A DNA stretch of 56,306 nt, from IMG/VR virus record IMGVR_UViG_3300027985_000330, positions 1 through 56,306 of that record; one strand, 5' to 3'. Origin of the DNA: a virus. Its lineage: Duplodnaviria > Caudoviricetes. Under the pieces are notes generated by a model, which had not been told where the DNA came from, searched no databases, and worked only from the letters and a program-made list of their open reading frames with translations. A program made the position numbers and the translations under genes. Each line of letters opens with the position of its first letter. Within the stretch, counting starts at the first letter, position 1. Below, one piece after another: positions 31,667 to 53,440 of this stretch.

Positions 31667-31720
31667 TTTTCAAAACGAAAGCATATTTTTGATTGATTTG
31701 CAAGCATAAAATGAAGCAAG

Positions 31721-32064: not shown

Positions 32065-32107
32065 ATCTTTATTAGTTCGTGTTCTCGCAATCATTCAACT
32101 TGTGGTT

Positions 32108-32356: not shown

Positions 32357-32396
32357 AATAAAATTTTAGTAGAACAAATCAGTTCGTCGGAATTGC

Positions 32397-32771
32397 TTAC
32401 CGTTCCTGCTCGCAATCCACGACTTCGCGGTTCGGCAAATAAGGAAGCGGTATCCAGTGAGTTGGTTCATTCGCACCATCAAGCTTGTGCTGTGACACAG
32501 AATTTTTAACGTAACTCCACCATCCTTCTGCCTCTTGTTGTGAATCATAACCTTGATCCTTCCATAGCTCAACCTCAGTTCCATCTGTAGCGATTATAAC
32601 CCCAGTATCATAAAAGGCATTATGAACAATCCAAACAGATGCGAAATCGTATCCAACTATAATTTCAGTTCCATCTTTTGGTGCCGTCTCAATAGACATC
32701 CAAGCCGAACAAGGCGTTTTAAGAAACTCGCTACCGCTCGTTTCGTTTTGATTATGTATATCTTTTGTCAT
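32397..32771 (-). CDS. Cassette A3, DUF551-like phage protein
   Basis: WMSIETAPKDGTEII ... PTHWIPLP motifs; start in attC loop. Confidence 0.7.
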   Translation of the reverse strand: MTKDIHNQNETSGSEFLKTPCSAWMSIETAPKDGTEIIVGYDFASVWIVHNAFYDTGVIIATDGTEVELWKDQGYDSQQEAEGWWSYVKNSVSQHKLDGANEPTHWIPLPYLPNREVVDCEQER

Positions 32772-32792
32772 AGCTCGTTCTTAAACTTAGCG

Positions 32793-32987
32793 TTAGCTAG
32801 ATTCTTCATTGATTTCTTCTAATGTCATTTTGATTTTCGTTTCACCAATTCCGTGTTTATACCACAATAATGTAAACTCGTGTTTTGCCATATCGGTCAT
32901 ACCAGCGTTTAGAATCTTGGTGTATTCCGGCATAGCCCATTCTCCAGTCATTTCAATACATTCTTCAAATAATTCTCCAGCTTTCAT
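32793..32987 (-). CDS. Cassette A4 hypothetical protein
   Basis: AAAGGA RBS; TAA stop formed by the GTTA core. Confidence 0.6.
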   Translation of the reverse strand: MKAGELFEECIEMTGEWAMPEYTKILNAGMTDMAKHEFTLLWYKHGIGETKIKMTLEEINEESS

Positions 32988-33063
32988 AGCGTTTCCTTTC
33001 TAATTTGGAGCTAACAATACATTCTATGTAATCCTGAACCGCTCCGATCTCAGGATACATAAA

Positions 33064-33318
33064 TTAAGCGTTCGGAGAAATAAATTTCACCCACTCCCAA
33101 TGCCCAAACGTGCAAATAGAATCTCGATAACCGTATCCATGGCATCCAAGATTTCGACTTTCGTTGCTATGCTTGCGTGCCGTCGTTGCGCTTATTTTTG
33201 TCCAAAGCACTCCAAATTCATTTTGGAATCGGTCGCCTTCGATCAAATCTCCAAAGGTCACCGAACAAGGCGCTGTATCCAATTCGGACACGTCCGCGTT
33301 TTGGTTGTCGTTACTCAT
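33064..33318 (-). CDS. Cassette A5 hypothetical protein
   Basis: Likely start MSNDNQ in attC loop; TFGDLIEGDRF motif. Confidence 0.6.
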   Translation of the reverse strand: MSNDNQNADVSELDTAPCSVTFGDLIEGDRFQNEFGVLWTKISATTARKHSNESRNLGCHGYGYRDSICTFGHWEWVKFISPNA

Positions 33319-33357
33319 AATTTTTGTCCTCATGGATAAGCTTTGCGTTGGACACAT

Positions 33358-33618
33358 TTACTTAGATTGTGGAAACCCTGACGCCATTGCGTTGACTGCA
33401 ATAGCCCACATTAAAAGGATTATCCCAGTTGCTATTACTTCAATGTCGGTTTCAAAGTGATAGTTCCAGCCAACATACATGGTTGTTTCAAGCCAGTATG
33501 GAATTGTTGATACGATGGTAATAATTCCGGCATATATTTTTGTCCAACAAATCTGTGGAGAGGAACACTCTACCTGCTCCTCGGTTTTCGTAGTATCTGT
33601 TTTCATTTTAGCTTTCAT
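33358..33618 (-). CDS. Cassette A6 two-TM membrane protein
   Basis: Start in attC loop; two hydrophobic segments. Confidence 0.6.
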   Translation of the reverse strand: MKAKMKTDTTKTEEQVECSSPQICWTKIYAGIITIVSTIPYWLETTMYVGWNYHFETDIEVIATGIILLMWAIAVNAMASGFPQSK

Positions 33619-33641
33619 TTTTCGTGTCCCTCACATCGGCG

Positions 33642-34055
33642 TTATGCATTTAATGGTTGTTTCGTTTTTGCATCAATCCAACCTTGCTTTATTCCGAAAT
33701 CTTCATCGAAATCGTAAGTTTCAAATTTATGCGAATCACTTCTGTTTACACAATGGCAAAAGACCATTTCGCAACTTCTCTTTGTTAACGGTCCAATCTG
33801 ACGGTCAACTTTTCTGGTTTCTTTGTTTACGAGTTGTATATAATAGTTCATATCGAGGTTAGCCAATGAAGAATCCCGTTTTAGCCCCCGCCTGCCCATT
33901 TCGTCGCAATACACGACTAAACCAGCAAAGCACGATGCCTGCCAGTCCGAACCAGCCTCGGCTTCCAGCAGATCGGCGTGGGCCTGCTCTGCACGTTGCA
34001 TTAGTTCGGAATCCGCGAGGGATGCGGTATATTTTTTGATGTCTCCGTAAGTCAT
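33642..34055 (-). CDS. Fused ORF spanning two cassettes (junction at 33858)
   Basis: GC-rich 5' half joined in frame at core GTTAGCC to AT-rich half with own Met (MNYYIQ). Confidence 0.55.
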   Translation of the reverse strand: MTYGDIKKYTASLADSELMQRAEQAHADLLEAEAGSDWQASCFAGLVVYCDEMGRRGLKRDSSLANLDMNYYIQLVNKETRKVDRQIGPLTKRSCEMVFCHCVNRSDSHKFETYDFDEDFGIKQGWIDAKTKQPLNA

Positions 34056-34134
34056 AGTAAAAAAGAGAGGCTAACAAAGCGATCTAGCCAATTCAGACCC
34101 CGCTCGCTTTGTGGTTGTTCGTATGTTTTCTGAT

Positions 34135-34251
34135 TTAGTCTTCATGGCTAATCTTATGGTTCTCAGATAAAACAGGCAAGCGCAAAAGCGCAGCAACCTT
34201 TGCTTTGCTACCGCGTTTCTTCCGTTCGCGCTTGTAGTCGGGTGGGGTCAT
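34135..34251 (-). pseudogene. Short, apparently internally deleted HTH-like ORF
   Basis: MTPPDYKRERKKRGSKAKVAALLRLPVLSEN...; resembles first two helices of small Xre-type HTH proteins. Confidence 0.35.
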
Positions 34252-34454
34252 GCAATCCAAGATTTTACCTGTTCTTTGGTTGCAAAAGTCACATGGCCAT
34301 TGTCGGTTGTGACTTCAAATTTTCCTGCTACCGCATCGACGCGACGAGCGCGAAATCCGTTTTCCATCATTGGGCGAACTGGGGTGTTTTTTAGTGCTTT
34401 GTTGATTTTGTTTTGAAGTGTTTTCATATTTTTATGGTTTTCCGTTGGGCTCAT
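34248..34454 (-). CDS. Cassette hypothetical protein with own promoter
   Basis: ATGA-coupled to downstream HTH-like ORF. Confidence 0.55.
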   Translation of the reverse strand: MSPTENHKNMKTLQNKINKALKNTPVRPMMENGFRARRVDAVAGKFEVTTDNGHVTFATKEQVKSWIA

Positions 34455-34467
34455 TCCCTTCGATGTT

Positions 34468-34523
34468 TTTAATATCGCACAATCTGCGATTTATTGCAAG
34501 CATTATTTTCGCATTTTGTGCGA
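34468..34523 (-). promoter_or_regulatory. Cassette-internal promoter with two palindromic operators
   Basis: TTGCAA-17-GATATT; TCGCA-N5-TGCGA at 34475-34489 and 34509-34523. Confidence 0.55.
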
Positions 34524-34605
34524 TTTTTTTTAACCAAACAAAATGGAATGAGAACAAACTGCTGGAGTGAATGCCGAGAAAGCTCGTCATCCACTCAGCT
34601 CACGG

Positions 34606-34752
34606 TTATATAAATAAACAATCACATTCACGCCATGATTCACGTTTTTTATTGACGATAATCTCAACGTATTTCCCACCGTTTAGTTCGTATTTTTCAA
34701 CGAATGTTGCAACTAGTTTTAGTTTCTTGTGCATTACTTGTTTTGTTTTCAT
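34606..34752 (-). CDS. Hypothetical protein at head of array A
   Basis: Start MKTKQ just after promoter; TAA stop formed by last GTTA core. Confidence 0.5.
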   Translation of the reverse strand: MKTKQVMHKKLKLVATFVEKYELNGGKYVEIIVNKKRESWRECDCLFI

Positions 34753-34805
34753 GGTTGTATAGTAGCGCAAACGTATTACGCACGTCAATACTTTTTTTAA
34801 AAAAA
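34753..34805 (-). promoter_or_regulatory. Sigma70-like promoter with T7A7 UP-like tract driving array A
   Basis: TTGACG-18-TACTAT; related motif at 19997, 28778, 29050, 52133. Confidence 0.6.
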
Positions 34806-36239
34806 TTACAGCACGCCGTAAAATTTACCGTCATCGACTAAATGCGCGAACCCTTGAGAGAGTGCATCTACTTGGTCTTTGTATTTGCTTGCCGGAAAGT
34901 ATTGCAATTCATCAATCAAAGCACGATTCCACGCACCCCTAACCATTTTTACATTTCCGTTATTGACTTGAGATGCTAACGGTCCAGCCCGATCCGCTTT
35001 ATTACCTGTAGGCAAATCTATGATAACTTCCCAACCCATTAGCATTCTGGCCGTAGCTTCCGCAACCTCGAGTCCGCTCGATCCGCCTTGCCTTTCTATT
35101 ATAATCGGAATATTTTTACCATCTGCAGTTGCTGTCTGTTTTATGATTGGTTCACGTTCCGAAAAATCCCATTGGCCCCTAACCATGTCTAAAAACCAAA
35201 TAACGCCGCGAGTATCAATGCCAATCTCACATCCAGCAGTATAACATCCCCTATCCTTTAAACCGGCCGTATCCCAAGATCGAATGGATCTAACTAGATT
35301 ATATGGACGTTCATCTTCTATCTGTATCCGAGCTGTTTTAAACATGCCACCTTCTCGCGGAATCGGTGTTTGCATGTATTGGCATGCATATCCGAACGAA
35401 CCAAGAATAGCTTTTTTTTCATCTAAAACCGAACGCGACAACCGAACAGGATCGAGCAATCCATCTTTATAAAATCTTTTGTATTTTGCAGGCTTTACAT
35501 TATCGCTTAATTCGGCCGGAAAGCACAAATGTTTTATTTTTCCGCCTAGTTCTAATTTTGATCCGGTTGGATCGTCTTGCGCAATTCGCTGCATAATTAA
35601 TGCCTCAACAGAAACTGCAGAATCTACTTTTCTTGATGGCAAAACTTCATTTTGGAAAAGATTAGCTTTGTATTTTTCGGCATCAGAATCACCGTCTAAT
35701 ACTTTTAGCGGATCATCTGGAATAATAAAATGCGCATGACTTCCGGTTGGATTTCCACCTGTAGAAAATGTTAATCTTTCGCCCCCAAGCGTGTTTCCAA
35801 ATGTTTGAACTCCATCATTGTCACGCCTTATTTCAATTTCTGAAAAAAGCTTTTTATATTTATCACTCTTGATAATATCTCGACATTTCCTTGAAAGACG
35901 TTCAGCCAATCTCGATTCGCAACTTGTGCAAATAATAACCGCATGCGGCATTCTTGTCCATATCCATGCAGGAAAGGCAATCGAGCAAATACTGCTCTTT
36001 GATGTAGATGGTGGAACATTAATAATTAAATCATATAGCTTCTCCTTCCCATCAAATACGCGCTCTGCAACCTTTTGAAGCTCATTACATAATACCTCAT
36101 GATGGAAATTAATAACAAGCTTTTCATGGTTATTTACTTCCCAAAATTCTTTGAAGAAAATCAGAAAAGAACTCCTACACGCTTCAGCAAGAAATATGTC
36201 TTCGTTAATCTGCATTAATTCCGTAGTCTTTCGGATCAC
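34806..36239 (-). CDS. terL: Terminase large subunit
   Basis: IINVPPSTSKS Walker A variant, IIPDDP, IMQRI, SWDTA, DQVDALSQ. Confidence 0.93.
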   Translation of the reverse strand: MIRKTTELMQINEDIFLAEACRSSFLIFFKEFWEVNNHEKLVINFHHEVLCNELQKVAERVFDGKEKLYDLIINVPPSTSKSSICSIAFPAWIWTRMPHAVIICTSCESRLAERLSRKCRDIIKSDKYKKLFSEIEIRRDNDGVQTFGNTLGGERLTFSTGGNPTGSHAHFIIPDDPLKVLDGDSDAEKYKANLFQNEVLPSRKVDSAVSVEALIMQRIAQDDPTGSKLELGGKIKHLCFPAELSDNVKPAKYKRFYKDGLLDPVRLSRSVLDEKKAILGSFGYACQYMQTPIPREGGMFKTARIQIEDERPYNLVRSIRSWDTAGLKDRGCYTAGCEIGIDTRGVIWFLDMVRGQWDFSEREPIIKQTATADGKNIPIIIERQGGSSGLEVAEATARMLMGWEVIIDLPTGNKADRAGPLASQVNNGNVKMVRGAWNRALIDELQYFPASKYKDQVDALSQGFAHLVDDGKFYGVL

Positions 36240-36672
36240 AACCGCGTTGCTTAATCATATATATATTATACGCCATGAAATCTTGATCGTCTTTATCGTT
36301 TTCCCAATGCATAAAACCGAAGCAACGCAACGTCCAATACATAATTTCAGATTGTGTCATGTTATGTCCGTCCTCACGCAATATATCCAGAAAATACTGA
36401 TCACATTGCGCTTGTGTATATTGATGCGTGTGGTATCCCCAATCGTGAGCGAATGCAGCCCGAATGATACGCGGATCAAATGGAGAACCAACCAATGCCC
36501 AAGCGAATGAAGGGATGCTAGCACCATCAGATTCGAATCCATCCGGAATGAATACTTCACCGAATCGAGTATCAACCAACAAATCGCGCTTGAGTTTTAC
36601 ACATTCGCGAATTTTTGCATAATGCGGATATAAGCATGGTTCATAAAGTGGAATATATATGTCTGTATTCAT
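36205..36672 (-). CDS. DUF1353 family protein
   Basis: IPDGFESDGASIP ... AAFAHDWGY. Confidence 0.85.
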   Translation of the reverse strand: MNTDIYIPLYEPCLYPHYAKIRECVKLKRDLLVDTRFGEVFIPDGFESDGASIPSFAWALVGSPFDPRIIRAAFAHDWGYHTHQYTQAQCDQYFLDILREDGHNMTQSEIMYWTLRCFGFMHWENDKDDQDFMAYNIYMIKQRGCDPKDYGINAD

Positions 36673-36690
36673 ATATTCTAAATATATATG

Positions 36691-36855
36691 CTAAAATTCA
36701 GATAATGCAATTTCTCGCTTTTTGTGCTTATGCAATCGGTTGTTACGACACAAATCACACGATCTATGATTGCGGCATGTCCGATCAAATGATTTCGATC
36801 CTCTATAATGATGACGATGTTCTTTTCCGCTTATGATTGCCTTTAGTAAACTCAT
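36691..36855 (-). CDS. Small Cys/His-rich basic protein (below ORF-track cutoff)
   Basis: MSLLKAIISGKEHR...DRTCRNHRSCDLCRNNR; ATGA-coupled to minor head gene. Confidence 0.6.
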   Translation of the reverse strand: MSLLKAIISGKEHRHHYRGSKSFDRTCRNHRSCDLCRNNRLHKHKKREIALSEF

Positions 36856-37715
36856 GTTCTAAATCGTTTTCCTTCAATCACAGGTTTCCACGCGCAACGG
36901 CAACTGACGTGCTTAGGTATTTCTTCGTATGCATATTTCACTTCGAAAATCACACCCTCTAATGCAGCACATTGCGAACATACACGATCGTCTCCTGCTG
37001 TAGAAAATTCAACCATAGCCTCTACTTCATCTATGCCTAATCGTTCTAATGATGACAACTGCCCATATGCGTGCGAACGTATCGTCTCTGTTCGTGCTAT
37101 CGCAAATGCTCGCTTATTCGTCAATACGTCAATGCGCTCCAGCATTTGTTTAGCCGCTTCTGCTGGCCCTTGTCCATTCGCAATTGCGATTGCGAGTATT
37201 CGCCCCATCTCGTTAGACATTGCATCTGTAACGCCTTCCAGTGCATCATACGCTCGCGTATAGAGTAGCCCTAGCTTATCTACCGTCTCTTTTGATGAAA
37301 ATGCTTCAGACATCCATTGCGCTTTTTTTCCGGCAAAGAAATTATCATCATCGAGCAATCCCGCTTTATTTACATCGTAATAACTGCGTTCGTATCCTTT
37401 ACGATATGCGCTTTCTATATACGTATTCTGCCACGGATTTCCGGTGCTGTCGGTCGTTAAAATACCTGCGTCAATTTGTTCCTGAAGCCATTCTTTGAAC
37501 TTCGCAATTTTTTCGGTTGATGATAAAAATGCGAATTCACGATAACGGTTAAATATATTTGGACGCACTTCTTCTTTTAGCCCGAATGCATCATCTTTGC
37601 CTACGAGTTGATTTATCTGGCGTTTCATCCATGAAAAGCGTTGCTTCATGTCATTAAGATAACGCCGTCTAAGCGTGAGCGTTTTTGATGGATCTACTTG
37701 GTATGTGGTTGCCAT
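36852..37715 (-). CDS. Minor head morphogenesis protein (SPP1 gp7 / Mu gpF-like)
   Basis: IARTET, TAGDDRVC..C, PKHVSCRC. Confidence 0.9.
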   Translation of the reverse strand: MATTYQVDPSKTLTLRRRYLNDMKQRFSWMKRQINQLVGKDDAFGLKEEVRPNIFNRYREFAFLSSTEKIAKFKEWLQEQIDAGILTTDSTGNPWQNTYIESAYRKGYERSYYDVNKAGLLDDDNFFAGKKAQWMSEAFSSKETVDKLGLLYTRAYDALEGVTDAMSNEMGRILAIAIANGQGPAEAAKQMLERIDVLTNKRAFAIARTETIRSHAYGQLSSLERLGIDEVEAMVEFSTAGDDRVCSQCAALEGVIFEVKYAYEEIPKHVSCRCAWKPVIEGKRFRT

Positions 37716-37996
37716 GATTGAAATAAAACATAGCGCACTTGCTAATCATCCATTCACAAATGCGCCATGTAATCTACATAATATATATTGAAAAATTAAT
37801 CTTTTAGTTCATTTAACTGCGAAATTAGAAAATCAACCGAACCTCTACCTCTTGAAATAGAAACGCTTTTTGAATAAATCAGCGAATCTTCGCTTGCGTC
37901 TCCATCATATGCATTTTCAATGATAATGATTTGATTACCATCATCACTTAGTTTTACTTGAACTGTTTTTGTATCGTATGTTACTTTATTCATAGC

Positions 37997-39211
37997 TTAT
38001 TCCTTTTTCTTGTAATCTAAAAAATAATCTGTATGCGCAATCTCGTTTGTCCACTTCGGAACAATCTGAATTGAATATCCGCTATAGCTATCTCCAAAGT
38101 TATGCTGAACCCACGCGCTAGGCGGTGCGAAACTCATAAAGTTTCTATAATCAAACCGCTTCGTCCGCTCGTATCCAACTTGATGCAAATCACCTTTATG
38201 AACATGCACGAATTTTGAATCAATTCCATAATGTTCAATATAATCCCATATGAAATTCTTTGCCGCATCAGTAAGCTTAAACGGTAATCCACGATTCTGA
38301 AACTTGGCATCCTTTCCATGTGTCAATACAAAGCAATGATTTCCGTAAACGCGATGCTCTACAAAACGTTTAATTGTATCTATCTCAACAATAGATGAAT
38401 CATAAAGCATGTTTATAATCTTCTGAACGGCACTATTCACAATCAATGCAAATTGATGAGAATGATTTGCATTAGTAACCGTCCGAAGCATAATCTTATT
38501 TGCAATTCTCGCGTCAACGCACGAGCGCACAAGCTTTACCTTATTATCTACACAACACTCAAACATTTCAAGCTCTGTCATATTTTGTTCAAGCGAATGA
38601 TTTCCGCGAGTTGTAAGTCCATTCCATCCGTCTTGTGTATCGCCCAAATCATCCAGCAAAAGCAAATCAAATGTTCCATATTGTCGATGCTCTTTTTCGA
38701 TTGATCCGAATACCTTTTGCATGGATTCTCCGTAGACTTGTGCATTATATTCATACGCGAAAATTGAATCTATTGGCAACGGATCAAGCCCAACGTGCTC
38801 ATCGCTTGTTACCGCAACGCAAGCCATTGGATCACTAATCTTTATCGGCTCAAATAAGATAGGATCATCTACTGGATATTTTCGAATGATCTTTTCAAAT
38901 GCATCAAGGTAATCAATAGCGTTTGTTTTATCAAGCTTCGTATAGACGGACATCTCTTTTGATTTCGTCCAATAGCTTGATACCTCTGAAATGTTGATTC
39001 CTTTTTCTTTACAAAACGCCCTTAACACCTCATGATTAACTCCTTCAAGAACCTGATTGCTATTTTCAATTCGCTTTCCCTCTATAAATGCTTTCACCCA
39101 CATTCTACAGGTCATTTCGCTTATATTGAATCTTTCTGAAATTTGCCTTCTACCTAATCCGCTTTCCATTGCGGCGTAAATCTCATCAGGTATTTCTACG
39201 GTTACTTGCAT
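37997..39211 (-). CDS. Metallophosphoesterase/nuclease-like protein with N-terminal HTH
   Basis: SDEHVG, LGD, ANHS, THG, GDLH. Confidence 0.7.
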   Translation of the reverse strand: MQVTVEIPDEIYAAMESGLGRRQISERFNISEMTCRMWVKAFIEGKRIENSNQVLEGVNHEVLRAFCKEKGINISEVSSYWTKSKEMSVYTKLDKTNAIDYLDAFEKIIRKYPVDDPILFEPIKISDPMACVAVTSDEHVGLDPLPIDSIFAYEYNAQVYGESMQKVFGSIEKEHRQYGTFDLLLLDDLGDTQDGWNGLTTRGNHSLEQNMTELEMFECCVDNKVKLVRSCVDARIANKIMLRTVTNANHSHQFALIVNSAVQKIINMLYDSSIVEIDTIKRFVEHRVYGNHCFVLTHGKDAKFQNRGLPFKLTDAAKNFIWDYIEHYGIDSKFVHVHKGDLHQVGYERTKRFDYRNFMSFAPPSAWVQHNFGDSYSGYSIQIVPKWTNEIAHTDYFLDYKKKE

Positions 39212-39390
39212 CGTTTTTGCTGTTTGTGTTGACGTTGAAAACCATACTCGCGATTTTCATATTCTTCTACCAAATTCATCAGGTATTCCCGATATTGCGC
39301 ATCTTCACTTGTAGATTCGAACTCATCTAAGTCGTAAATGATCTCCAATGCAATAGCGCAATCGTGATCGTTTCTAATTCTAGTAATCAT
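39202..39390 (-). CDS. Small protein resembling the N-terminal domain of HigA-type antitoxins
   Basis: IRND.D...AL.II.DL ... YLMNLVEEYENREY; lacks HTH. Confidence 0.4.
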   Translation of the reverse strand: MITRIRNDHDCAIALEIIYDLDEFESTSEDAQYREYLMNLVEEYENREYGFQRQHKQQKRCK

Positions 39391-39474
39391 TTAATTTCAA
39401 AGTTTAACAAATGATATTCTTTTGTCAATAATATGAAACTAAAATGAATCTCAATGCAAGCTTTTTATTTTAAA

Positions 39475-40320
39475 TCAGCGATATTCCCTTGTATTTTTCA
39501 CAAGAATTATATCAAATCCAGCAAAAACATCAATATCATTTGTAGATGCTGTAGAAACATGAATCCATATGTCTGTTTTTTCAGGAATCCTAATCGGTAT
39601 CATTCCGCCAGATGGAACGGAAATGAATTCCGCAATCTTATCATTTGAAATGCCTCTTACCGTTAAGGTTCTAACGCCTTCATTTGGTGAATGGATTTTC
39701 AGCTCGGATACGATTGCTATATTTAAAACCCGACCCGAATCACAATAAGCTCTAGTCACAAATCCGGTATAGCCATTAGGTATTGTGTATATTGCCTGTA
39801 GTGTTTGTCCATATCCGGCTAAAATCTGAGCACAAACCGCACCACCGCCAGCGACTCTTATGTTTATATTGCCCTGATTTATATCGGTAGATCCACATTG
39901 CGTATTGTATGCCCTATATATTCGGATATATGTTTTAGACAATGCAACAGCATTCGTCCCGTCCATCTCAATATCTTCTTGCGACAAATCCCAATTTGAA
40001 TCCAATCCAAAGACCCTGATTTTTTGTGCTCCAGTTCCAACCAAATCATCTAATGCCGAGCTGGATACTACTTCCAAAGATTGAGCAGTATCGAAAAATC
40101 CAGTATAATTTCCGCCATTTGACCAAACATCCTCATTTCCAGAATTATCAATATCGAAATTTGCACCAAATTTCGAAACGTATTTTACATCATCTCCAAA
40201 GGCTCCTCCAGAAATAGCGATACCTAAATCTGAATTTATATCATATCCATTTTTGATATAGTTAGGATCTGCAAATAAATTCATAGAGAAAAATATGATC
40301 AATATACAGGAATTTTTCAT
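39475..40320 (-). CDS. Hypothetical beta-rich protein with signal-like N-terminus
   Basis: KFGAN.DID, GTGAQKIRVFGLD, AIYTIPNGYTG. Confidence 0.5.
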   Translation of the reverse strand: MKNSCILIIFFSMNLFADPNYIKNGYDINSDLGIAISGGAFGDDVKYVSKFGANFDIDNSGNEDVWSNGGNYTGFFDTAQSLEVVSSSALDDLVGTGAQKIRVFGLDSNWDLSQEDIEMDGTNAVALSKTYIRIYRAYNTQCGSTDINQGNINIRVAGGGAVCAQILAGYGQTLQAIYTIPNGYTGFVTRAYCDSGRVLNIAIVSELKIHSPNEGVRTLTVRGISNDKIAEFISVPSGGMIPIRIPEKTDIWIHVSTASTNDIDVFAGFDIILVKNTREYR

Positions 40321-40502
40321 AGCTTTAAGATTTCACGGTTATCCAAGATAGTTGACGATTAACAATGCGTTGAGCTGCGTCCCTCGCTTCTTTCTCGCGT
40401 TCCGGCATTGCACAATCAATCATCGTTCGCAAGTCATTATTGTTATCGGATATATCATCCATAGCTGATCCAATGTCAGCACCTATCCGAACGCGCAAAT
40501 CC

Positions 40503-42011
40503 TCATTGCGCTGATTGATCAACTGAACCAGTATCATTTCCGTCTTGTGTTAAAGCTTGTTCGTCTCCAGAATAAGCTTTTTGGTTTTTATCAGCATTTT
40601 CAATAATTTGCTGTATTAATTCGTCGTCGAATCCCCAAATTATAGAATAATAATCCTCACGCGTCATTATTGATTCAAGGTTGCTCTGTGTATACAGTGC
40701 AAGTGCTTTTGTTTTCTTTTCAGCACTTTCCGCCAGTTCTTCGGGTGTGAGTTTATTAAGATCTGGAAACTCAACAGAGAACTTCTCAACGCGCGGCAAT
40801 ACACCATAATCCATCAATCTATTGATTACCGGACGAATAATTTTTGGAATAATGTATTTCGTTTGACGGCGCATCAATCGCTTGTTCCATGCTTTTTTAT
40901 CTTCCGCACTCGCATATTTCGCTTCTTCGCTACCCAAGAAAATTCTCCACGGAACTTCTAACGCTATACATATTGCCTGTAATTGTATTGCAATGTGTGG
41001 AGTTGGATCGTTGATTGTTCCTGCTACCGTTTTAACGCTTCCGGTTCCGACCATGTATTTTTGCAATGATTCCGACAAACGTTCGAGTTGTTCCTTGATT
41101 GCTCCCTTCAGCGTTTCACTTGCGTTAATCTTTGCTGCCGCTTCCGGAGACATTTCGAAAATCAGCGATGGAAATGCATTCTTCCAATATCCTTCAGCCG
41201 ATGCACCATAGATTTTTCTCAGATTATACACATTGTTATAAACAGGCTTTAACTCTGGAGTTCCTTTTGTGTCGCTATCCAAGCAATTATCCGCTAAATG
41301 ATGGCAACGCGTCCAGTGAAACTTCATCGTCTTTGTTTCGAGTGGATTCGTTGTTGTAGCTTCAGATAAGTAATCTTTATATGTAACAGAATAAATGACA
41401 GGCTTTCCAAATCGTGGGCTATTCGTTCTTGTCTCCCATCGGTCAATCGTGATTGACGGTTCAGAATATGCACGGATATATAGCAATGAATGCGATAGAT
41501 TCTCGTTCCACTTCTCAGATGCTTCATCATATCCTTCAACCGGTAAAGAAGTATCTATATTGTTTGCATCATTCAATCCGAAAACGATTATTCCATAATG
41601 TCCAATCTTCGACAGAATATCAGCACGAAGCATCATTTCATAAAGCGAATGCTCATCATTGAGTATTTCTATGCCTCTTTCAAATTCTGTTTGCTGGCTT
41701 ACGTCTTCTGTTTCGTAAATCCATGGATCATCAGCCCAGCTTTCCTCCGGTAATAGCGATACAATTCGCGCTCCAATAGCCTCACGATCAAAAATTTCTT
41801 TATATTGTGATAGTGTTATTTGAGATGGATAATTACACTCGTTATTAATATCCTTTTTTCCATCAACTGAACCCGTAAAACGATCAAACAATGTTCGAAT
41901 CGCATTAGATACAGAATGATAATGATTCATCGCAAACATTTCAACATTCGAAATAGCATTCGATACATGCGCTAAAACCGTTTTTTCTTCTGCTTTATTA
42001 TCTCCCGACAT
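40503..42011 (-). CDS. Portal protein (DUF1073-like)
   Basis: SPRFGKPVIY, FHWTRCHH, GASAEGYWKNA, VPWRIFLGSE...ASAED. Confidence 0.88.
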   Translation of the reverse strand: MSGDNKAEEKTVLAHVSNAISNVEMFAMNHYHSVSNAIRTLFDRFTGSVDGKKDINNECNYPSQITLSQYKEIFDREAIGARIVSLLPEESWADDPWIYETEDVSQQTEFERGIEILNDEHSLYEMMLRADILSKIGHYGIIVFGLNDANNIDTSLPVEGYDEASEKWNENLSHSLLYIRAYSEPSITIDRWETRTNSPRFGKPVIYSVTYKDYLSEATTTNPLETKTMKFHWTRCHHLADNCLDSDTKGTPELKPVYNNVYNLRKIYGASAEGYWKNAFPSLIFEMSPEAAAKINASETLKGAIKEQLERLSESLQKYMVGTGSVKTVAGTINDPTPHIAIQLQAICIALEVPWRIFLGSEEAKYASAEDKKAWNKRLMRRQTKYIIPKIIRPVINRLMDYGVLPRVEKFSVEFPDLNKLTPEELAESAEKKTKALALYTQSNLESIMTREDYYSIIWGFDDELIQQIIENADKNQKAYSGDEQALTQDGNDTGSVDQSAQ

Positions 42012-42012
42012 G

Positions 42013-42339
42013 TTATTTTAAAGATTCCTGTTTAATTCGTTCGCGCTCAATGTCATTAATTTTACCATAAACCGAAGTCGCAATTTCATCTAGCGTTATA
42101 ACATTTTCATCGATTAAAATGTTTTTTGATAGGTCTTCGATTCCGTTTAAATATGCGAACATTGCATATTCAGAAAAGCTTTTTTGAATATCTTCGAGTC
42201 TGTCCTTATCAACAACAAGTCGATACGTTCCAATTTGAGTATCGCTATCCAAATAGAGCACACCTGAATAGACAGGTGCACTCTTGTAAGAACAGGATGA
42301 TAATAACAATAGACAGACTATGAAAAAAGCTTGTCGCAT
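42013..42339 (-). CDS. Small lipoprotein
   Basis: Lipobox LLSSC. Confidence 0.5.
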   Translation of the reverse strand: MRQAFFIVCLLLLSSCSYKSAPVYSGVLYLDSDTQIGTYRLVVDKDRLEDIQKSFSEYAMFAYLNGIEDLSKNILIDENVITLDEIATSVYGKINDIERERIKQESLK

Positions 42340-42644
42340 TACTCCTTGACTTTTGAAAACGCTTTCTGAATTTCTTCGAATGTTTCCTTCGCAGACGATT
42401 CGCCTTCTTTTAGTTTATTCAGCAATTCTGCGGTTGTTGGAGTTTCCATGTCGTCATCGTTTTTGATAACGTTGTAAATGGCTTTCCCAATTGAGAATAA
42501 ATCGGGAACGTATTTTAAAATCGCAAGTGCTTTGACGGCGATTTGATAAATGAGTGTTAATGACATAATAGCTATTTGTTCAAAAAATAGCATAGTCAAA
42601 AACGAATTAAAAGCAAATATGAACAAACGTTTACATATTTTAAT

Positions 42645-42726
42645 CAATAAAAAAGCCGTCGAAAGACGGCTAATCTAACACTGAGTTGGATTGCACCTCG
42701 TTACCCCGGCAATCAACATTCTTGTT
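42645..42726 (+). repeat. ~82-bp direct repeat copy 2 (terminator + first attC-like site)
   Basis: Matches 31721-31803. Confidence 0.95.
42649..42671 (-). terminator. Rho-independent terminator closing cassette array B
   Basis: Identical to 31725-31747. Confidence 0.8.
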
Positions 42727-44200
42727 GGCAAGAGTATTTTTCTTTAAGTCTGCGAAGTTGCTCGCGTTCATTCGCTTCAATTTGCTCCCGTTTTTTATGT
42801 TCAGACTCTAATCTAAACTGATATTCTTCATCTGTTTCAAGTCTATCATATTTTACCTCAATGGTTGCAGTCGCGCTATCATAGAACTCGTATGCATCAG
42901 TTCTGAAGATAGTATGCTCTATATGTTCCTCCGGAATGTATTCAACCAAGTCATTAATCCACTTTTGAAAGTCTAAAATGTTATTATTCCAATCGGAAAT
43001 ATCCAAATCAGACCAATCTTGATCGTTGTATATATATACTGTTTTAGTTCGTTTTTCCATTTTCGTAAGTTTATTTAATGATAACAAAGCAGTTCGATTA
43101 ACTCGCTACCGCTCGCAATCGACTTTTGGGTTAGCAAAGTAATTGCTCTATTGCTATAAGCATACCAGAAGCTTCGAGCATTTGCCCGCCAATGACAGCT
43201 TTAAATGTCTTTGAGTTTTCTGGTGATCGTTCATACTCCTTTTCTAGCGTATCAATTCTGCCATTGATATAGCTAACAAGTCGTTCGAGGTCGGAATTGC
43301 GAACACGCCGCAATTCCGAAGTATCATTATTTGTTGTCATATCTTTTCGGTTTTAAAGTTTTAGTTACTCGCAATCCCTCAACTTATGGTTATGCATATG
43401 ATATTGCTTCAATCAGTTCCTTATATTGTGGATTCTGTTTTATTGCGCGTTCTGCACCATCCCAATACAGATCATCCACAACCCTTTTTGGCATCATTGC
43501 CTTTGCGACTTCGATTTGTGATCTTAGTCTCGCTTTTGCCATTTTAATTTGGCGTATTTGTTCTTCAATTTCTGCATTCATGGCATAACAAGGCGTTTTA
43601 AAAAATTCCGCAATTCTCCATCTCTTTTAGTTCGATCATTCATCATGCGCTCCATTCTTAAACTTTTGGTTCGCTAAAATAAAATTTGCATACTCCAACG
43701 CCCTTGAGCTTCTGAATACTCCCCAAAACTCTGCCCAAGTTCCATCTCCACAATCTACGTTCCACGTTTCCACGCTTGTGTCGAATGTAACAAGCGGATG
43801 ATTTGTTTTTCGTATCCAACTATCTTCGACTTCGTAATCTAATAGAATTAATTGCGAACAAAACGGTGGAAGCAATTCGCTACCGTTCATCTTCTGATTT
43901 TCATTAGTTTGTGTTTTATCGCTCATGCTTCGCCTTTGGGTTTCCAAAATATCGATCAACGTCTATATTCCATTGAATCAACTCATCGATCTTTCGCCTA
44001 ACATCTGCTACAGTCTTGCACCCATCTGCCGTTCCAATACAAGCTACGATCATCATTTCATCCAGTGCCTTGTAGTATATGTTGCCCTCGGTGTCGGTTT
44101 CCGAGAATCCATCAGAACAATCCGCGTAAGAGGAACGCTCTATTGCACTAGTTTTGTTTTCGTTGCTCATGGGTTCGAGTCCCTCACATCTGCGTTAGAG
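42673..44200 (+). mobile_element. Cassette array B: cluster of 6 attC-like sites, no integrase (CALIN-like)
   Basis: Sites at 42673-42730, 43079-43136, 43271-43395, 43583-43675, 43853-43946, 44112-44200 separating five minus-strand ORFs (ending at 42713, 43131, 43390, 43636, 43916). Confidence 0.85.
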
Positions 44201-44209
44201 AATACATAG

Positions 44210-44659
44210 TTAATTTAATCGTTTCGCTTTATATGCTGCATAAGCTTCATGTATACGCTCCATTAGCTCTTTATCGCAAAACTCTGATAGATTCATTAAC
44301 GACGGTCCATTTGTTACATTTGCATCAATCTCGATTTGCTGTGTTGGCTTTCCGATCACATACTCAACAATTTCTTTTACTCTATTAAAGTCTCCTGAAT
44401 TTGCAGCATTTAAACATGCCCTTGCAACAATCGTGACAATTATTGGTTTTGATCGATCAGATGCATATTCCTCTATTGTTTCGATTTTCTCAAAAACAAG
44501 CTCCTTAAATGCATTTCTCAAATCTATTGCAGAATACCCAAGTTCTTTAATCTGTGTATATATCTTAGGTTTTCCTCCAGATCTATTTATATTTTCAGGA
44601 CGATCTTTGAAATTATTCTTCATCCAGTTTTTTTGTTTATGTATTGGAGTTGTTGGCAT
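44210..44659 (-). CDS. Terminase small subunit (probable)
   Basis: FKDRPENINRSGGKPK and IVEYVIGKPTQQIE motifs typical of DUF5681-like TerS. Confidence 0.65.
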   Translation of the reverse strand: MPTTPIHKQKNWMKNNFKDRPENINRSGGKPKIYTQIKELGYSAIDLRNAFKELVFEKIETIEEYASDRSKPIIVTIVARACLNAANSGDFNRVKEIVEYVIGKPTQQIEIDANVTNGPSLMNLSEFCDKELMERIHEAYAAYKAKRLN

Positions 44660-44667
44660 TTTAAAAA

Positions 44668-45039
44668 TTAAGTATTTATATTTTTATTACTATCATACCC
44701 ATATGATTGTAGATGTTTTTTTCCTTTAAAAAACTCAAGTATTTCTTTTATCCATTGATTGTGAAAATCATATAATTCTTTATCGTTGTCTATAATATAT
44801 TGCTCGATTCTCGAATTAAAAGAAAGATTTCCAGAACCTTCTATTGTATAATAATTCCCATCATATGTTTCGATTGAAATTATTTTAGCATGGGATGATG
44901 CAAAAATCAACTCAACTCTATTGTTATTCATAAATAAATCCCTAGTCAACGCTTCTTTTTTAGAACATGCTTTATTTCGAAGGTTTGAAATCAAGATTGT
45001 TGCATCTTCTATAAGCCCTTCGTTTATCATATGAAACAA
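44668..45039 (-). CDS. PLD-like domain fragment
   Basis: SHAKII ... EGSGNLSFNSRIEQY; appears N-terminally truncated. Confidence 0.5.
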   Translation of the reverse strand: MFHMINEGLIEDATILISNLRNKACSKKEALTRDLFMNNNRVELIFASSHAKIISIETYDGNYYTIEGSGNLSFNSRIEQYIIDNDKELYDFHNQWIKEILEFFKGKKHLQSYGYDSNKNINT

Positions 45040-45121
45040 GATAATCTACGTCGTCTGTATGACGACTTGAACCAAGCGATCTCAATGCTTGTCCTCCGAT
45101 TAATATCTTTTTACTTTCCAT
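44972..45121 (-). pseudogene. Nucleotidyltransferase-like N-terminal fragment
   Basis: LIGGQAL...SRHTDDVDYLV then abrupt end. Confidence 0.45.
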
Positions 45122-45300
45122 GATTAAAGTATCAAAAAAAATGATCACAATTTCAATAAAAAAGTGATCATTTTTATATTTTTTTAAAAAAATGTTTTTA
45201 TTCGTCGCTAATATCAACATTTTTTGAATTTAGCACCGCCATAAACATAACAATAGTAATAGCGATTATTGGTGTTAATATAATTATAGTCTGAAATGTA

Positions 45301-45795
45301 TTATTCATGCTTTTTAAATACTCCATTTTCGGTTGTTCCTGTTCGATTCTTAATTACGTTATATGCCGACTCAAGGCAATCAACGACATCAAGATCATTC
45401 TTCGATGCGATAACATTCAACCAGCAAATTGCCTTTGTCAATAACATTTTTGATGTATTTTCATAAATTGCGTAAATTGCTAGTAATAGATTAAACATCG
45501 CATCAGCTTCGGATTGATCCATGAACTGAAACGATCGTTCTTTCCCGAGTGCCATCACATCAACATCAACCGGAATACCAAAGATTTTTCCGAATAAAAT
45601 TAATGTAACCAAAACATCCCCGATTGCATCTTTGATTTCCTCGTGATTATTTTTGCAAATCCCATCAGCGAGTTCACCGCATTCCGAAGCGCACTTAAGC
45701 AATTGCTTAATTTGATTGCCTTTTACGACAATTCCTTTTTCACGTCCCCATTCAACAACGAGATCATGCAATTCTGTGTATGTATATTCGCTCAT
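45301..45795 (-). CDS. MazG-like nucleotide pyrophosphohydrolase
   Basis: SECGELA, DAIGDVLVTL, CLESAYNVIKNRTG...GVFKK. Confidence 0.85.
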   Translation of the reverse strand: MSEYTYTELHDLVVEWGREKGIVVKGNQIKQLLKCASECGELADGICKNNHEEIKDAIGDVLVTLILFGKIFGIPVDVDVMALGKERSFQFMDQSEADAMFNLLLAIYAIYENTSKMLLTKAICWLNVIASKNDLDVVDCLESAYNVIKNRTGTTENGVFKKHE

Positions 45796-45797
45796 AA

Positions 45798-46694
45798 TTA
45801 AAATACTTCTGTTAGTGTTTCTTTGATTTTTCGGATTAAAAGTGTATTTAGAGTCTTAAAATCTACTTTTGGCATCTTATATTTTTTAACTATATTCCAA
45901 GATTCTTCAATAATGAATTCATTAAAACAGCGTGACAGTAATTCTGGTATATATTTCGAACTCCAACCATCGTGTAATTCTTTCACTTTTTCGAATTCTT
46001 TTTCGATAAATGCAGTTGTCGCCAAATCATTAATGATCTCTTCTTCAATCATCTTAGATCCTTTCGATTCTGGAGCACCCATTTCTTTTCGATGCTTTTC
46101 TTTGAATTCGCTCGTTACTATTTTTGCCCATGTTTTGCGACCATATTTATTTTCGTAATTATAGTTTTTGCAAACTACACCTTCTCCAGTTCCTTCACCA
46201 TCCTTTATTAGATAGTTATTTTCGTCTAAACATTTTAGCAAATTCTCATATGTAGGATTATTAATAATGCGCAATGGTGGAATATATTGGATACCATATT
46301 CTTCCAAGATTTCGCTGTATTGTTCATAGGTTAAATAATCTCCGCATGAATCAATAACATCAAATACGTAGAAATTGCGCCATGCCGATTCTCTATATGT
46401 TTTTAATGAATGCGGAACGAGCCATTCTCCAGCTAAACGAAGTTTTGGAAATTCTTTGAAAAACTCTTCAAATTGTTTCTGAGTTACCGCCCAATTCATA
46501 AACCCAGCATTATCATTTTCAATACTTAATTGGCGATTGCGTGATCCAGCGCAAAGTTCACCATCTGAATCGAGCCAGAGCTGAGCATTTGTTCCGTCTA
46601 TTTTCGGAAACACATAAACGCGACCGATAAGAATTCCGTCTGTTTCATCAGTTCCCAATCGTTCAACGTGCTGATATTTTTGATATTCACTCAT
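45798..46694 (-). CDS. RNA ligase (Rnl2-like)
   Basis: KIDGTN, GSRNR, GEW, FYVFDV, EGVVCK, WAKIV nucleotidyltransferase motifs. Confidence 0.85.
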   Translation of the reverse strand: MSEYQKYQHVERLGTDETDGILIGRVYVFPKIDGTNAQLWLDSDGELCAGSRNRQLSIENDNAGFMNWAVTQKQFEEFFKEFPKLRLAGEWLVPHSLKTYRESAWRNFYVFDVIDSCGDYLTYEQYSEILEEYGIQYIPPLRIINNPTYENLLKCLDENNYLIKDGEGTGEGVVCKNYNYENKYGRKTWAKIVTSEFKEKHRKEMGAPESKGSKMIEEEIINDLATTAFIEKEFEKVKELHDGWSSKYIPELLSRCFNEFIIEESWNIVKKYKMPKVDFKTLNTLLIRKIKETLTEVF

Positions 46695-48357: not shown

Positions 48358-48798
48358 TCAGCTTTCTATTAACATTTTACGATATTGCTTCATTCTCAGC
48401 TTTGCATTATTCGCAGGCTCAACGCCATTGTCAAGCAAAATTTTACGCTGTTCCTTCGATGACAATCTACCAAAACGACGCACGATGATAGGCAATCCTT
48501 TTGGATGCATAATGTCTGTTTGTTTCGTTGACCATATAGCGCATCGTTTCAGGATTGTCTCAAGATCGAGTTCGTATCTCTGAACAAGCGCATTCATTCG
48601 CGTTTTCCATGCGTTTTCGATTTTACCTAGCAACACATTCGATTCACGATGCACGACTCCACGAACAAAACCGCTGCAATGGTCGTGATCTACAACTGCG
48701 CAATCATCATTAAGCGGAATATCAAGAATAGGGCATCTCTCTGGTTTGTTTGCAATGCGCCACTCTCGAAGTTCGTCTGTGTTACGTATGATTTTCAC
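48358..48798 (-). CDS. Endonuclease VII-like (His-Me) nuclease
   Basis: CPI, VVDHDHCSGFVRGV, N..LGKIEN. Confidence 0.8.
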   Translation of the reverse strand: MKIIRNTDELREWRIANKPERCPILDIPLNDDCAVVDHDHCSGFVRGVVHRESNVLLGKIENAWKTRMNALVQRYELDLETILKRCAIWSTKQTDIMHPKGLPIIVRRFGRLSSKEQRKILLDNGVEPANNAKLRMKQYRKMLIES

Positions 48799-49763
48799 AA
48801 TTCACCAAATAATTCTTGTTGGTCTTGTTTCCCTGAATTAACAGCTTCATCGCAGTTAAGAACAGCTTGCTTATAATATGTAGATTTTAACTCTGCTCCG
48901 ATTGCTTTTCTTCCATTTATTAATGCCCCGTATGCTTCACTTCCAACACCCAAAAATGGAGTTAATACTACTTCATCTGGATTGCTTCTTAATACAATAG
49001 TCCTCTCAATGACATCCAGTTGCAAAGGATGCACATGGCGTTCATCGTCTGGATCTTTACATTCCTTATATGGCAACACACGATCAATTCGAATGTCATC
49101 CCAGAATGCGCTCGCATATTGTCGCCATATCCAATGAGAATAACGATTTTCAGTTTGCTTCCCTGTATGCCCTTTCCATTGTAACAATTCATGTGGAATC
49201 TGTCTTTCGCCAGCATATGAATGTAATCCGGTTGGATGAATAACAGGAACTTTATTTTCTCCTTTTTTTCTAAACAAAAGCAAATAGTCCGCGCTTGCAA
49301 CGTCACATAAAATTGAATCATCAACAATCTGTTTGTGAGCTAAACCTTTTGCCATTGTTCTGTTTCTAACTCCAAGAGGTTCTTTCCAAATATGGTAACG
49401 CGCAATATATTTAAAACCAAGCCTTTCATGCATTCGGATAATATCACCAGGAAAGTCAATCAATGATCCACCAGTATTTGCTCCATGAGTTGGAATATCC
49501 ATGCAATGAACAGCACTACAACGACCCGATTTTGTAGTTCGAACAATTTGGTTAACTAAGTATTCATAGTGCTTAAAAAACTCATCATATGATTTGCAAT
49601 TACTCATATCACGTTCATCTGAACTGTAATTATATAGTCCGCAAAACGGAGGAGAATAAATAGACAAATCAACAGAATCATCTGGCAATGCGCTTACGAC
49701 ATCAACGCAATCTCCATTATAAAGAGCATATCTATCTGTTATTTTTTGTGCAATTACATCCAT
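48795..49763 (-). CDS. DNA methyltransferase, N4-C/N6-A beta class
   Basis: SPPF, HVHPLQLDVIER, TPFLGVGSE. Confidence 0.9.
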   Translation of the reverse strand: MDVIAQKITDRYALYNGDCVDVVSALPDDSVDLSIYSPPFCGLYNYSSDERDMSNCKSYDEFFKHYEYLVNQIVRTTKSGRCSAVHCMDIPTHGANTGGSLIDFPGDIIRMHERLGFKYIARYHIWKEPLGVRNRTMAKGLAHKQIVDDSILCDVASADYLLLFRKKGENKVPVIHPTGLHSYAGERQIPHELLQWKGHTGKQTENRYSHWIWRQYASAFWDDIRIDRVLPYKECKDPDDERHVHPLQLDVIERTIVLRSNPDEVVLTPFLGVGSEAYGALINGRKAIGAELKSTYYKQAVLNCDEAVNSGKQDQQELFGEL

Positions 49764-52157: not shown

Positions 52158-52406
52158 TTATTCACAACCGTTTTCTTTGAATGCCTTCAAAATTTCATCC
52201 AAGAAATACTCACGCGCAAAATGTAAATGCTTGCACCGTGTAGACGCATTAGATGCTCCATCGCGACGCTTAGGCCAGCAACGGCATTGGAACTGTTTGC
52301 AAGTGCAGACATCTTCGACTATATCAACGAGGTATTCGTCAATGTCTTTGTCCGATGATGACGTGATCCAGAATCGCGTTGGAGAATCAAAAGAGCGTAT
52401 TTTCAT
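52158..52406 (-). CDS. SWIM zinc-finger protein
   Basis: CTC...CKH. Confidence 0.7.
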   Translation of the reverse strand: MKIRSFDSPTRFWITSSSDKDIDEYLVDIVEDVCTCKQFQCRCWPKRRDGASNASTRCKHLHFAREYFLDEILKAFKENGCE

Positions 52407-53440
52407 ATTTTACTCAACCATTCTGAATAGACACGATCTGCTATATTCGCCATCATCACTGGTGGAACGCTCATCCCGCACATATAATTAACATGACTTT
52501 TAGAATTAGAAATAAAATTATAATCAGACGGAAATGTCTGTATTTTTATTATTTCATCATTATTCAATTGTCTGCATATAGTTGGATGATAATTTTTATG
52601 ACTTGCACATGTTGTAAAGCATACATCGTTCATTGATTGCTTTCTACGTGCATCATATTTTCCAACACTTTCACATTGTTTCGCGTTAACCCAATAAGAT
52701 GTAGTTAATTCAGTTAGATCGCATGACAAATCATTATTGTCTGAAATTTCACTAAAGCATATTTCATCATAATCAAACTGCATATCAATGAATGATTCAC
52801 TTTGAAAAATATCAATAAACTCATTTTTATATAAGTCTTTTCTAATTGCAAAAAAGAAAACACGTTCACGTTTCTGCGGAACACCCATATATCTAGAATT
52901 CAAAAGACTATACGTAACGAAGTAACCAGCATTATAAAATGCATCTAAGATTGCATATAGATATTTCCTTGCATTGCCAATTAATAATCCTTTTACATTT
53001 TCAGCTATAATTATTTTTGGTTGCAATCTTTTGCCAAGATCAATGAAATCAAAAAATAAGGTATCTAAAACCTGCTTCTTCTGTCCTTCTCTAAATTTCT
53101 TTTCAACACCCCACGCTGCTTCTCTTAGTCCAGTGGTAGAAAAACTTGAGCAAGGCGGTGAACCATCAAGAATATCAAGATTGAATAATTCATCCGGTAA
53201 ATCTGTTCTATTTTTAAATTCTTGAATTGGCTCAATAAAGCAGTATTTTGGATTATGATTTACCTTATAACATTCTGCCATTCTTGGGTCAATTTCGTTG
53301 CAACCAAGAACATCAAACCCAGCAAGCTTATATCCCATAGTTGATCCACCGCCACAAGCAAAACATGAAAAAACATTTCCTTTATCTTTTGTAAACACCG
53401 CGTCTTTCAGCGTCCAATCATAGTTATATTTTGATTTCAT
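52403..53440 (-). CDS. DNA cytosine-5 methyltransferase
   Basis: FACGGG, GSPPC, ENV, PQKRERVFF, GMSVPP. Confidence 0.93.
   Translation of the reverse strand: MKSKYNYDWTLKDAVFTKDKGNVFSCFACGGGSTMGYKLAGFDVLGCNEIDPRMAECYKVNHNPKYCFIEPIQEFKNRTDLPDELFNLDILDGSPPCSSFSTTGLREAAWGVEKKFREGQKKQVLDTLFFDFIDLGKRLQPKIIIAENVKGLLIGNARKYLYAILDAFYNAGYFVTYSLLNSRYMGVPQKRERVFFFAIRKDLYKNEFIDIFQSESFIDMQFDYDEICFSEISDNNDLSCDLTELTTSYWVNAKQCESVGKYDARRKQSMNDVCFTTCASHKNYHPTICRQLNNDEIIKIQTFPSDYNFISNSKSHVNYMCGMSVPPVMMANIADRVYSEWLSKI

Follow-up and report, generated by a model that had tools for sequence, protein, structure and literature searches.

A phage genome in which short hairpin-like sites alternate with small ORFs raises the question of whether such sites belong to the attC class known from integrons and, if so, what recombines them. 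The DNA analyzed here (the window; 56,306 nt, the whole of IMG/VR virus record IMGVR_UViG_3300027985_000330) is an entire contig, C244, of a MAG (2.74 Mb, 265 contigs, 76.6% complete). It belongs to a siphovirus-like phage whose minus strand carries nearly all genes; beside those listed in Table 1, it encodes a tail protein, the tape measure, head proteins, an RNA ligase, methyltransferases, a helicase, and a primase. The packaging and head genes are enclosed by two arrays of sites: array A lies immediately downstream of TerL, and array B immediately upstream of the portal module. Array B had been described in an initial annotation as a second cassette array of six attC-like sites, built like array A and drawing from the same cassette pool.

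Shine-Dalgarno sequences are absent from the phage genes, and the nearest TerL sequences are those of Flavobacteriia phages (37% identity); thus, the host is probably a member of the Bacteroidota, which is inferred, not shown. TerL relatives did not exceed 53% identity in IMG/VR and JGI metagenomes, or 47% in GTDB genomes, and in the three relatives whose downstream sequence was examined a portal-like gene directly followed TerL. Megablast of positions 30000-46500 against phage records gave no match, an Rfam search of the window returned no family at gathering score, and no tRNA genes were found in it. A string resembling a tRNA T arm, GGGTTCGAGTCCC at 44171-44183 (+) inside site B-1, was discarded (ARAGORN predicted no tRNA, and the homologous array A site lacks the string). 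Three methyltransferase-like genes (PHROG matches) are located at 29600-30202, 48795-49763, and 52403-53440.

A second contig of the same MAG, C129, stems from a related phage, its right end being 94% identical to positions 1-570 of the window. Besides tail genes and those for a sliding clamp and Erf, the C129 segment (1-9928) has three attC-type sites; these are found in another gene context than in the window, namely between the sliding-clamp gene and the gene for an Erf-like ssDNA annealing protein (phrog_1097, E = 4e-66), which directly follows the terminal site. As no homologue of Erf or the clamp was found in the window, the phage genome it represents probably lacks a comparable ∼10 kb, in which a third array may be located.

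On the minus (gene-sense) strand, array B comprises six sites between 42677 and 44196, the first five of which are each followed by one small ORF (Table 1). Six sites are thus packed into 1.5 kb in array B and nine into 2.9 kb in array A, 15 in total. Read in this strand, a site consists of AAC, six unpaired nucleotides, the 5′ arm, a loop of 18-90 nt, the 3′ arm, five to seven unpaired nucleotides, and (T)TGTT, the AAC box often being built with the TAA or TAG of the preceding ORF. The loops of B-1 and B-4 contain the ATG of ORFs B1 and B4, respectively, and B-5 combines a short loop with a 7-bp helix and a single bulged A on the 3′ arm. The sub-family of B-1 includes the site at 33546-33643 and one in C129 (∼2603-2700); B-6 is nearly identical to the terminal sites of array A (31753-31803) and C129 (∼1614-1663). 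Site B-3 contains a leader ORF of 22 codons (43578-43646, minus strand), whose frame departs from that of ORF B3 at a T6 run (43600-43605); one extra T in this run would fuse the two. This frame break could stem from a frameshift mutation, from an error in the assembly, or from slippage. The leaders of the ORFs at 33318, 32771, 32064, 43926, 43340, and 44170, and the leader ORFs at 34146 and in C129 (∼2670), follow a common pattern: M, about 10-15 polar residues, (G)-S-E-L/F, three to five residues, and C-S, with serine encoded by both AGC and TCN. The pattern is partly forced by conserved nucleotides of the site (GARTT, TTGTT); its G-S-E|L element resembles prohead-protease cleavage motifs.

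Table 1. Location of the arrays, their sites and ORFs, and three phage genes in the window. R1 and R2, covariance models (see text).
Feature	Position	Strand	Description
ORF B0	44210-44659	-	149 aa; phrog_15125, function unknown; upstream of first site
Site B-1	44116-44196	-	AAC 44196-44194, GTT 44118-44116; R1 45.9 bits (training site); missed by R2
ORF B1	43916-44170	-	84 aa; no family match; start in B-1, stop in B-2; codon LLR +0.13
Site B-2	43857-43942	-	Weakest helix; untrained; R1 match 43849-43950(-), 46.9 bits, E 6e-8; missed by R2
ORF B2	43636-43926	-	96 aa; start in B-2, stop in B-3 loop; codon LLR +0.18
Site B-3	43587-43671	-	Sub-family of 32708-32794; R1 67.0 bits; R2 17.8 bits, E 0.11
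ORF B3	43390-43581	-	63 aa; TAA stop overlaps AAC of B-4; codon LLR +0.20
Site B-4	43275-43391	-	Sub-family of 32001-32107; dG -12.8, z -2.9; R1 58.3 bits; R2 30.1 bits, E 2e-4
ORF B4	43131-43340	-	69 aa; TAA stop overlaps AAC of B-5; codon LLR +0.12
Site B-5	43083-43132	-	Example site of the initial annotation; sub-family of 32373-32432; R1 47.8 bits; R2 23.4 bits, E 0.006
ORF B5	42713-43060	-	115 aa; phrog_25568 (E 3.6e-6), function unknown; stop inside terminal site; codon LLR +0.17
Site B-6 (terminal)	42677-42726	-	R1 38.8 bits; missed by R2
Intrinsic-terminator hairpin and T run	42654-42671	-	Closes array B; identical copy at 31730-31747 closes array A
Array A	31753-34607	-	Nine sites of the same class; ORFs A1-A8
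Array A sites 1-5	34553-34607, 34073-34161, 33546-33643, 33264-33349, 33013-33072	-
Array A sites 6-9	32708-32794, 32373-32432, 32001-32107, 31753-31803	-
TerL	34806-36239
Portal	40503-42011
Exonuclease	55321-56145

The strings on which the initial annotation had been based, including its example site at 43079-43136, were all recovered where it had placed them, and they recur more often than chance would allow. The right arm GTCCCTCACATCnGCGTTA, ending at 33644 and 44197, matched twice where 0.00 matches were expected from 100 shuffles; AACAAGGCGTTTTAA, at 32708 and 43587 with a one-mismatch copy at 32001, matched three times (0.24 expected; one of 100 shuffles reached three); and CTCGCTACCGCTCG, at 32727 and 43102, matched twice (0.14 expected; one of 100 shuffles reached two). 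A geometry scan together with the covariance model R1 (see below) likewise gave six sites for array B and 15 for the window. The initial annotation had conceded that it would fail if similar hits were as frequent in shuffled sequence, which is not the case: a strict-geometry scan of the window yielded 25 minus-strand matches, as opposed to 9.7 ± 3.4 (maximum 19) in 100 block shuffles. (Requiring a perfect stem was too strict, and allowing free bulges too permissive, with about 190 matches per strand.) Twelve of the 25 fall into the two arrays, that is, into 8% of the window. At the background of the MAG (0.105 strict-geometry matches per kb-strand), about 0.47 would be expected in arrays A and B, which contain nine and five, respectively, and array A is the densest such cluster in the entire 2.74 Mb.

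For the analysis of covariation, the 14 window sites found first and the three sites of C129 were aligned with MAFFT. AAC and TGTT are invariant in all 17, and the unpaired central spacer is that of attC (invariably 6 nt on the AAC side, and 5-7 nt on the GTT side). In one fixed register, 94.1% of the cells are paired, compared with 71.6 ± 2.5% in shuffles (none of 500 reached the observed value) and 34-47% when the register is slid. Cells with a double change number 34, compared with 11 in shuffles (again, none of 500), and changes on both sides occur in six of the seven helix pairs; the first pair, for instance, is U:A in five sites, G:C in four, C:G in three, and A:U in one. A caveat is that the register was derived from the same related sequences.

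The extrahelical bases also conform to attC. The unpaired base after pair 2 of the 3′ arm corresponds to position 16 in attC numbering (Nivina et al, PMC5027507, as far as the available part of that paper goes). The extrahelical bases of site 33013-33072 are G16 and T23, separated by 6 bp, and site 32373-32432 has bulges at 16, 20, and 24, the last being a T; the two reproduce the canonical patterns given in the accessible text of the same paper, G16/T23 for attC-aadA7 and G16/A20/T24 for attC-oxa2. In 11 of 13 interrupted array helices the bulge is on the 3′ arm, whereas the ratio elsewhere in the MAG is 155:143. With 7-nt R boxes, all 15 sites measure 58-125 nt, and the range found in that portion of PMC5027507 is 57-141 nt. 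Other properties fit poorly. Folding with DNA parameters was significantly better than for shuffles in only 6 of 14 sites, those with long loops (A-rich and unstructured) being weak hairpins. The outer R-box consensus is mostly unmet: of the 15 sites, one has RYYYAAC and three have GTTRRRY. Outside AAC/GTT, pairing (0-3 of 4 positions) looks random.

Two covariance models were used reciprocally, R1 built from the 17 phage sites only and R2 from 23 true attC sites only (control integrons of Vibrio, class 1, and Shewanella). On the window and C129, R1 retrieved its 17 training sites and one match it had not been trained on, which is the sixth site of array B (B-2; Table 1); the next best match reached 17.7 bits (E = 0.2). 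On Vibrio phage Va_90-11-286_p16, whose integron is complete, R1 identified 16 attC sites, 13 of them at E < 0.01, among which were all 15 repeat copies that had been found independently; on the class 1 integron in a P1 phage it found five sites immediately behind cassette ORFs (E = 6e-4 to 0.02), and on Shewanella phage M16-3 sites between cassettes (best E = 0.006). Conversely, R2 recognized seven of the 15 window sites at E < 0.03; at E ≤ 1 the number rose to 10, accompanied by a single match outside the sites. Two C129 sites were also recognized. It missed three of the six sites of array B, and its architecture was inherited from the alignment fitted to R1, which has to be borne in mind. 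In 260 kb of other loci R1 gave no match at E ≤ 1, and in 240 kb of control loci R2 gave a single one (E = 0.4). Across the MAG (2.7 Mb), R1 found nothing outside C244 and C129 at E ≤ 0.01, and it had no match in 150 other genomes of the MAG's family, nor in the nearest phage relatives by TerL, as far as these were searchable (three of five in one set were left out).

The term attC-like, as used initially, is therefore upheld by the reciprocal test against true integron attC sites and by the covariation test. Because of the covariation, the mutual recognition by the models, and the clean controls, the phage sites are classified, from their sequence, as attC-class sites forming an integrase-less cluster (CALIN). 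The formal criterion for a CALIN (at least two close attC sites without an integron integrase nearby) is fulfilled, as no PF00589 match is present on the contig, and that for a complete integron (intI, attI, and a Pc promoter beside the array) is not, as no intI adjoins the array. Searches for a tyrosine recombinase on C244 and C129, and for a serine recombinase or Y1 transposase in the MAG, were negative. An integron integrase (TIGR02249) scoring above the curated cut-off was found neither in the MAG (completeness, 76.6%) nor in any of 301 genomes of its family.

While class and structure of the sites are observed, that a recombinase acts on them now is inferred. With this reservation, we consider it likely that array B is an integrase-less cluster of six integron-type attC sites delimiting five single-ORF cassettes, and that the sites act like attC. 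Folded single strands would be cut at AA/C by an integron-type tyrosine recombinase supplied in trans. With such an enzyme, arrays could lose or acquire cassettes, and cassettes could pass between A, B, and related phages. The gene-sense strand has the configuration of the "bottom strand," with a polarity reversed compared with bacterial integrons. Counted against this explanation are the lack of a recombinase, the misfit of the R boxes, the weak folds, the strand of the ORFs, the sites missed by R2, and a joint that is not at AA/C (see below).

The strand of the ORFs deserves closer consideration. In all three control integrons, the strand recognized by the model is opposite to that of the cassette ORFs, whereas in the phage the two coincide. 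The phage ORFs are thus on the attC "bottom" strand and the hairpin precedes its ORF, so that the canonical criterion of a site following the ORF is not met. That these minus-strand ORFs are coding is supported by a positive codon LLR in 12 of 13, as opposed to none of the seven plus-strand ORFs, and two have PHROG relatives. ORFs B1, B2, and B4 start inside their own sites, as several array A ORFs do in the loop, and B3 and B4 end on the TAA that makes the next AAC box. B1 and B2, however, run on into the next site, and excision at AA/C would therefore truncate them. The bottom-strand ORFs, the start codons within sites, the lack of an integrase, and the mostly unmet outer R box had not been part of the initial annotation.

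A tentative reading of this arrangement, which we regard as possible but doubtful, is a phage-borne cassette system of reversed polarity with a private pool, recombined by an enzyme other than the canonical integron integrase. If so, the attC-type hairpin would be a 5′ module supplying start codon and short leader, and the cassette would end on its own TAA at the cleavage point. Neither would phage cassettes be expressed in bacterial integrons nor bacterial ones in the phage, and phages would therefore keep a pool of their own. The same doubt applies to the enzyme serving that pool, which would have to exist in a host lineage where no integron integrase was found. Single reversed cassettes (toxin-antitoxin) occur in Vibrio arrays. 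A report of an all-reversed array was not found in the literature, with the restriction that the site coordinates and full CALIN list of PMC9892861 were not covered.

Evidence for exchange comes from the distribution of the sites. The phage sites fall into at least five sub-families, and sub-families recur between arrays A and B and in C129. Comparison of copies from different arrays or phages gives 93-98% identity over 55-155 nt. For arrays A and B, the block of terminal site and terminator reaches 97%; when the terminal site is taken by itself, its C129 copy is 95-98% identical. We observe this sharing directly, as well as the fact that homology between sub-family members begins at AAC and ends at GTT. 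No homologous pair exists among the cassette ORFs. The inference of the initial annotation that both arrays draw from one cassette pool is thus supported only for the sites, whose sub-families they share. Outside this MAG, a DNA search with array A in 400 family genomes returned chance matches of 26-34 nt only, and pattern scans of IMG/VR with the terminator and terminal-site strings returned none. Fourteen IMG/VR matches to a pattern of sub-family 1 were rejected, since they came from GC-rich phages without relation to this one, from a repeat in a structural gene, and from what is probably a tRNA in a giant-virus MAG. In array A, a block at 34460-34540 (-), located between ORF A1 and the first site, contains two palindromes (TCGCA-5 nt-TGCGA) and a promoter-like pair, TTGCAA-17-GATATT; it is 94% identical in C129 (2249-2330), where an HTH-type repressor-like ORF (phrog_7950) is the last of the array that follows the block. 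Judged by these motifs, the block looks like an operator-controlled promoter for the array.

Metagenome contigs from the probable source runs, which may be the source sample, show variants, not frequencies. In these contigs, too, homology ends at site edges, as observed in a 361-nt contig sharing only 32001-32108, with flanks unlike the window on both sides, and in others that share only 34071-34155 or diverge at 33072 or 42672. Contig depth was 28 at 34537-34608 and 27 at 42645-42701, that is, about three times that of the flanks (about 10), which shows that these two site/terminator blocks are common to several genomes in the sample. Array B from 43044 to 44800 had almost no contig cover in the runs, and no inference is drawn from it. 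The single joint seen, between 32108 and 33262, abuts two sites and is not at AA/C.

This joint, and the fact that homology tracts comprise whole sites without a break at AA/C, would be expected if the sites had descended from attC but now merely served as homology patches of 50-120 bp, via which an Erf-like annealing protein and an exonuclease swap cassettes between co-infecting relatives, as for PeSL. The Erf-like protein encoded directly after the terminal site of C129, the exonuclease of the window (Table 1), the 93-98% identity of the site copies, and the absence of an integrase wherever one was searched for (C244, C129, MAG, 301 family genomes) are in line with this explanation, which is nonetheless unlikely: it accounts neither for the same spacing, bulge position, and compensatory changes in sub-families whose arms are unrelated, nor for the match to models of true attC. 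Homology-driven swapping is, however, compatible with an integrase-less attC cluster, as a second route of exchange. As no recombinase was found, and no sites in family genomes or relatives, the mechanism lies between a trans-acting integron-type enzyme and homologous recombination of the phage; whether recombination is site-specific or driven by homology is not settled.

Hairpins preceding ORFs could also act on the mRNA, as modules for translation start or processing, with the start codon in an A-rich loop, the helix ∼10 nt after the preceding stop, and the likeness to attC being secondary. The structured strand is indeed the sense strand of the mRNA; G-T (G-U) pairs are in sense orientation (one and three GU at two helix pairs); in 12 of 14 sites the fold of the minus strand is no worse than that of the plus strand; three of the five array B ORFs and several in array A start within the loop; and the phage genes are devoid of Shine-Dalgarno sequences. 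Yet the loops of five short sites are without a start codon, and neither the invariant AAC/GTT with bulges at 16, 20, and 23/24 nor the cross-recognition with DNA recombination sites of three integron classes is predicted by a function in mRNA. As the sole explanation it is very unlikely, and RNA data are not available; an mRNA-level role of the hairpins in addition to recombination is possible. That the repeats merely encode a shared N-terminal peptide (M, polar stretch, S-E-L/F, C-S) or are chance palindromes is extremely unlikely. Serine before E-L/F is encoded by AGC in three cases and TCN in four, which suggests a degree of selection at the peptide level. The 5′ arm, however, does not code or belongs to the upstream gene, TTGTT occurs in three different reading frames or is untranslated, and the same positions are conserved in non-coding sites; chance is excluded by the geometry enrichment, the string shuffles, and the covariation.

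An integrase-less cluster of attC sites as the best explanation for array B can be compared with known systems. With integron attC, the phage sites share the invariant AAC/GTT, spacers of 5-7 nt, extrahelical bases on one arm at 16, 20, and 23/24, and a length of 58-125 nt (PMC5027507, to the extent of its available text), as well as one site per small ORF, stop codons in the AAC box, and mutual recognition by covariance models. They differ in that the site precedes its ORF and often holds the start codon, consensus and pairing of the outer R box are mostly absent, long loops are A-rich and unstructured, and an integrase is found neither in the contig nor in the MAG nor in 301 family genomes. 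The integron repeats of Vibrio phage Va_90-11-286_p16 (MK672802) share with one phage sub-family the run AACAAGGCGTTT(T)AAG and the end ...GGCGTTA; the Vibrio sites, in contrast, are 105-137 nt long, highly uniform, located after sense ORFs, and adjoin intIA. PeSL of T4-type phages (PMC2839356 and PMC4122927, in the sections available) are likewise short, conserved, intergenic, and located beside small accessory ORFs of plastic regions, with apparent modular shuffling. PeSL, however, consist of promoter and terminator motifs, whereas terminators are present here only at the two array ends and sigma-70-like promoter matches are at the level of chance (50 vs 43.2 ± 6.6), none of them marking sites (Bacteroidota-type promoters were not covered).

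A precedent is provided by CALINs in phages, for which recombination by IntI1 has been published (PMC9892861). Qi et al (2023; PMC9892861) list 17 CALINs in 10,705 genomes, each with at least two sites, and the example of TJE1 has three sites and four ORFs. These are integrase-less attC clusters in virulent phages, Polaribacter phage P12002L (Flavobacteriaceae host) included; in the latter, neither of our models had a convincing match (best R1, 16 bits, E = 0.7; best R2, 17.7 bits, E = 0.4). As such clusters are already in print, array B belongs to a known kind. Methyltransferase cassettes have been reported from phage CALINs, whereas the methyltransferase-like genes of the present phage are located outside its arrays. 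What is unusual here, as far as published cases can be compared without their full CALIN list, is the presence of 15 sites in one phage, with bottom-strand ORFs whose start codons are often inside sites, and with no integron integrase found; the host context differs as well. This raises the question as to what recombines attC-like hairpins outside integrons, and whether the hairpins also drive expression. Integron-type sites in phages had previously been reported only as rare and short clusters, whereas one contig here carries nine plus six, and a related contig three more, which suggests that some phages organize small accessory genes as cassettes at the scale of small chromosomal integrons.
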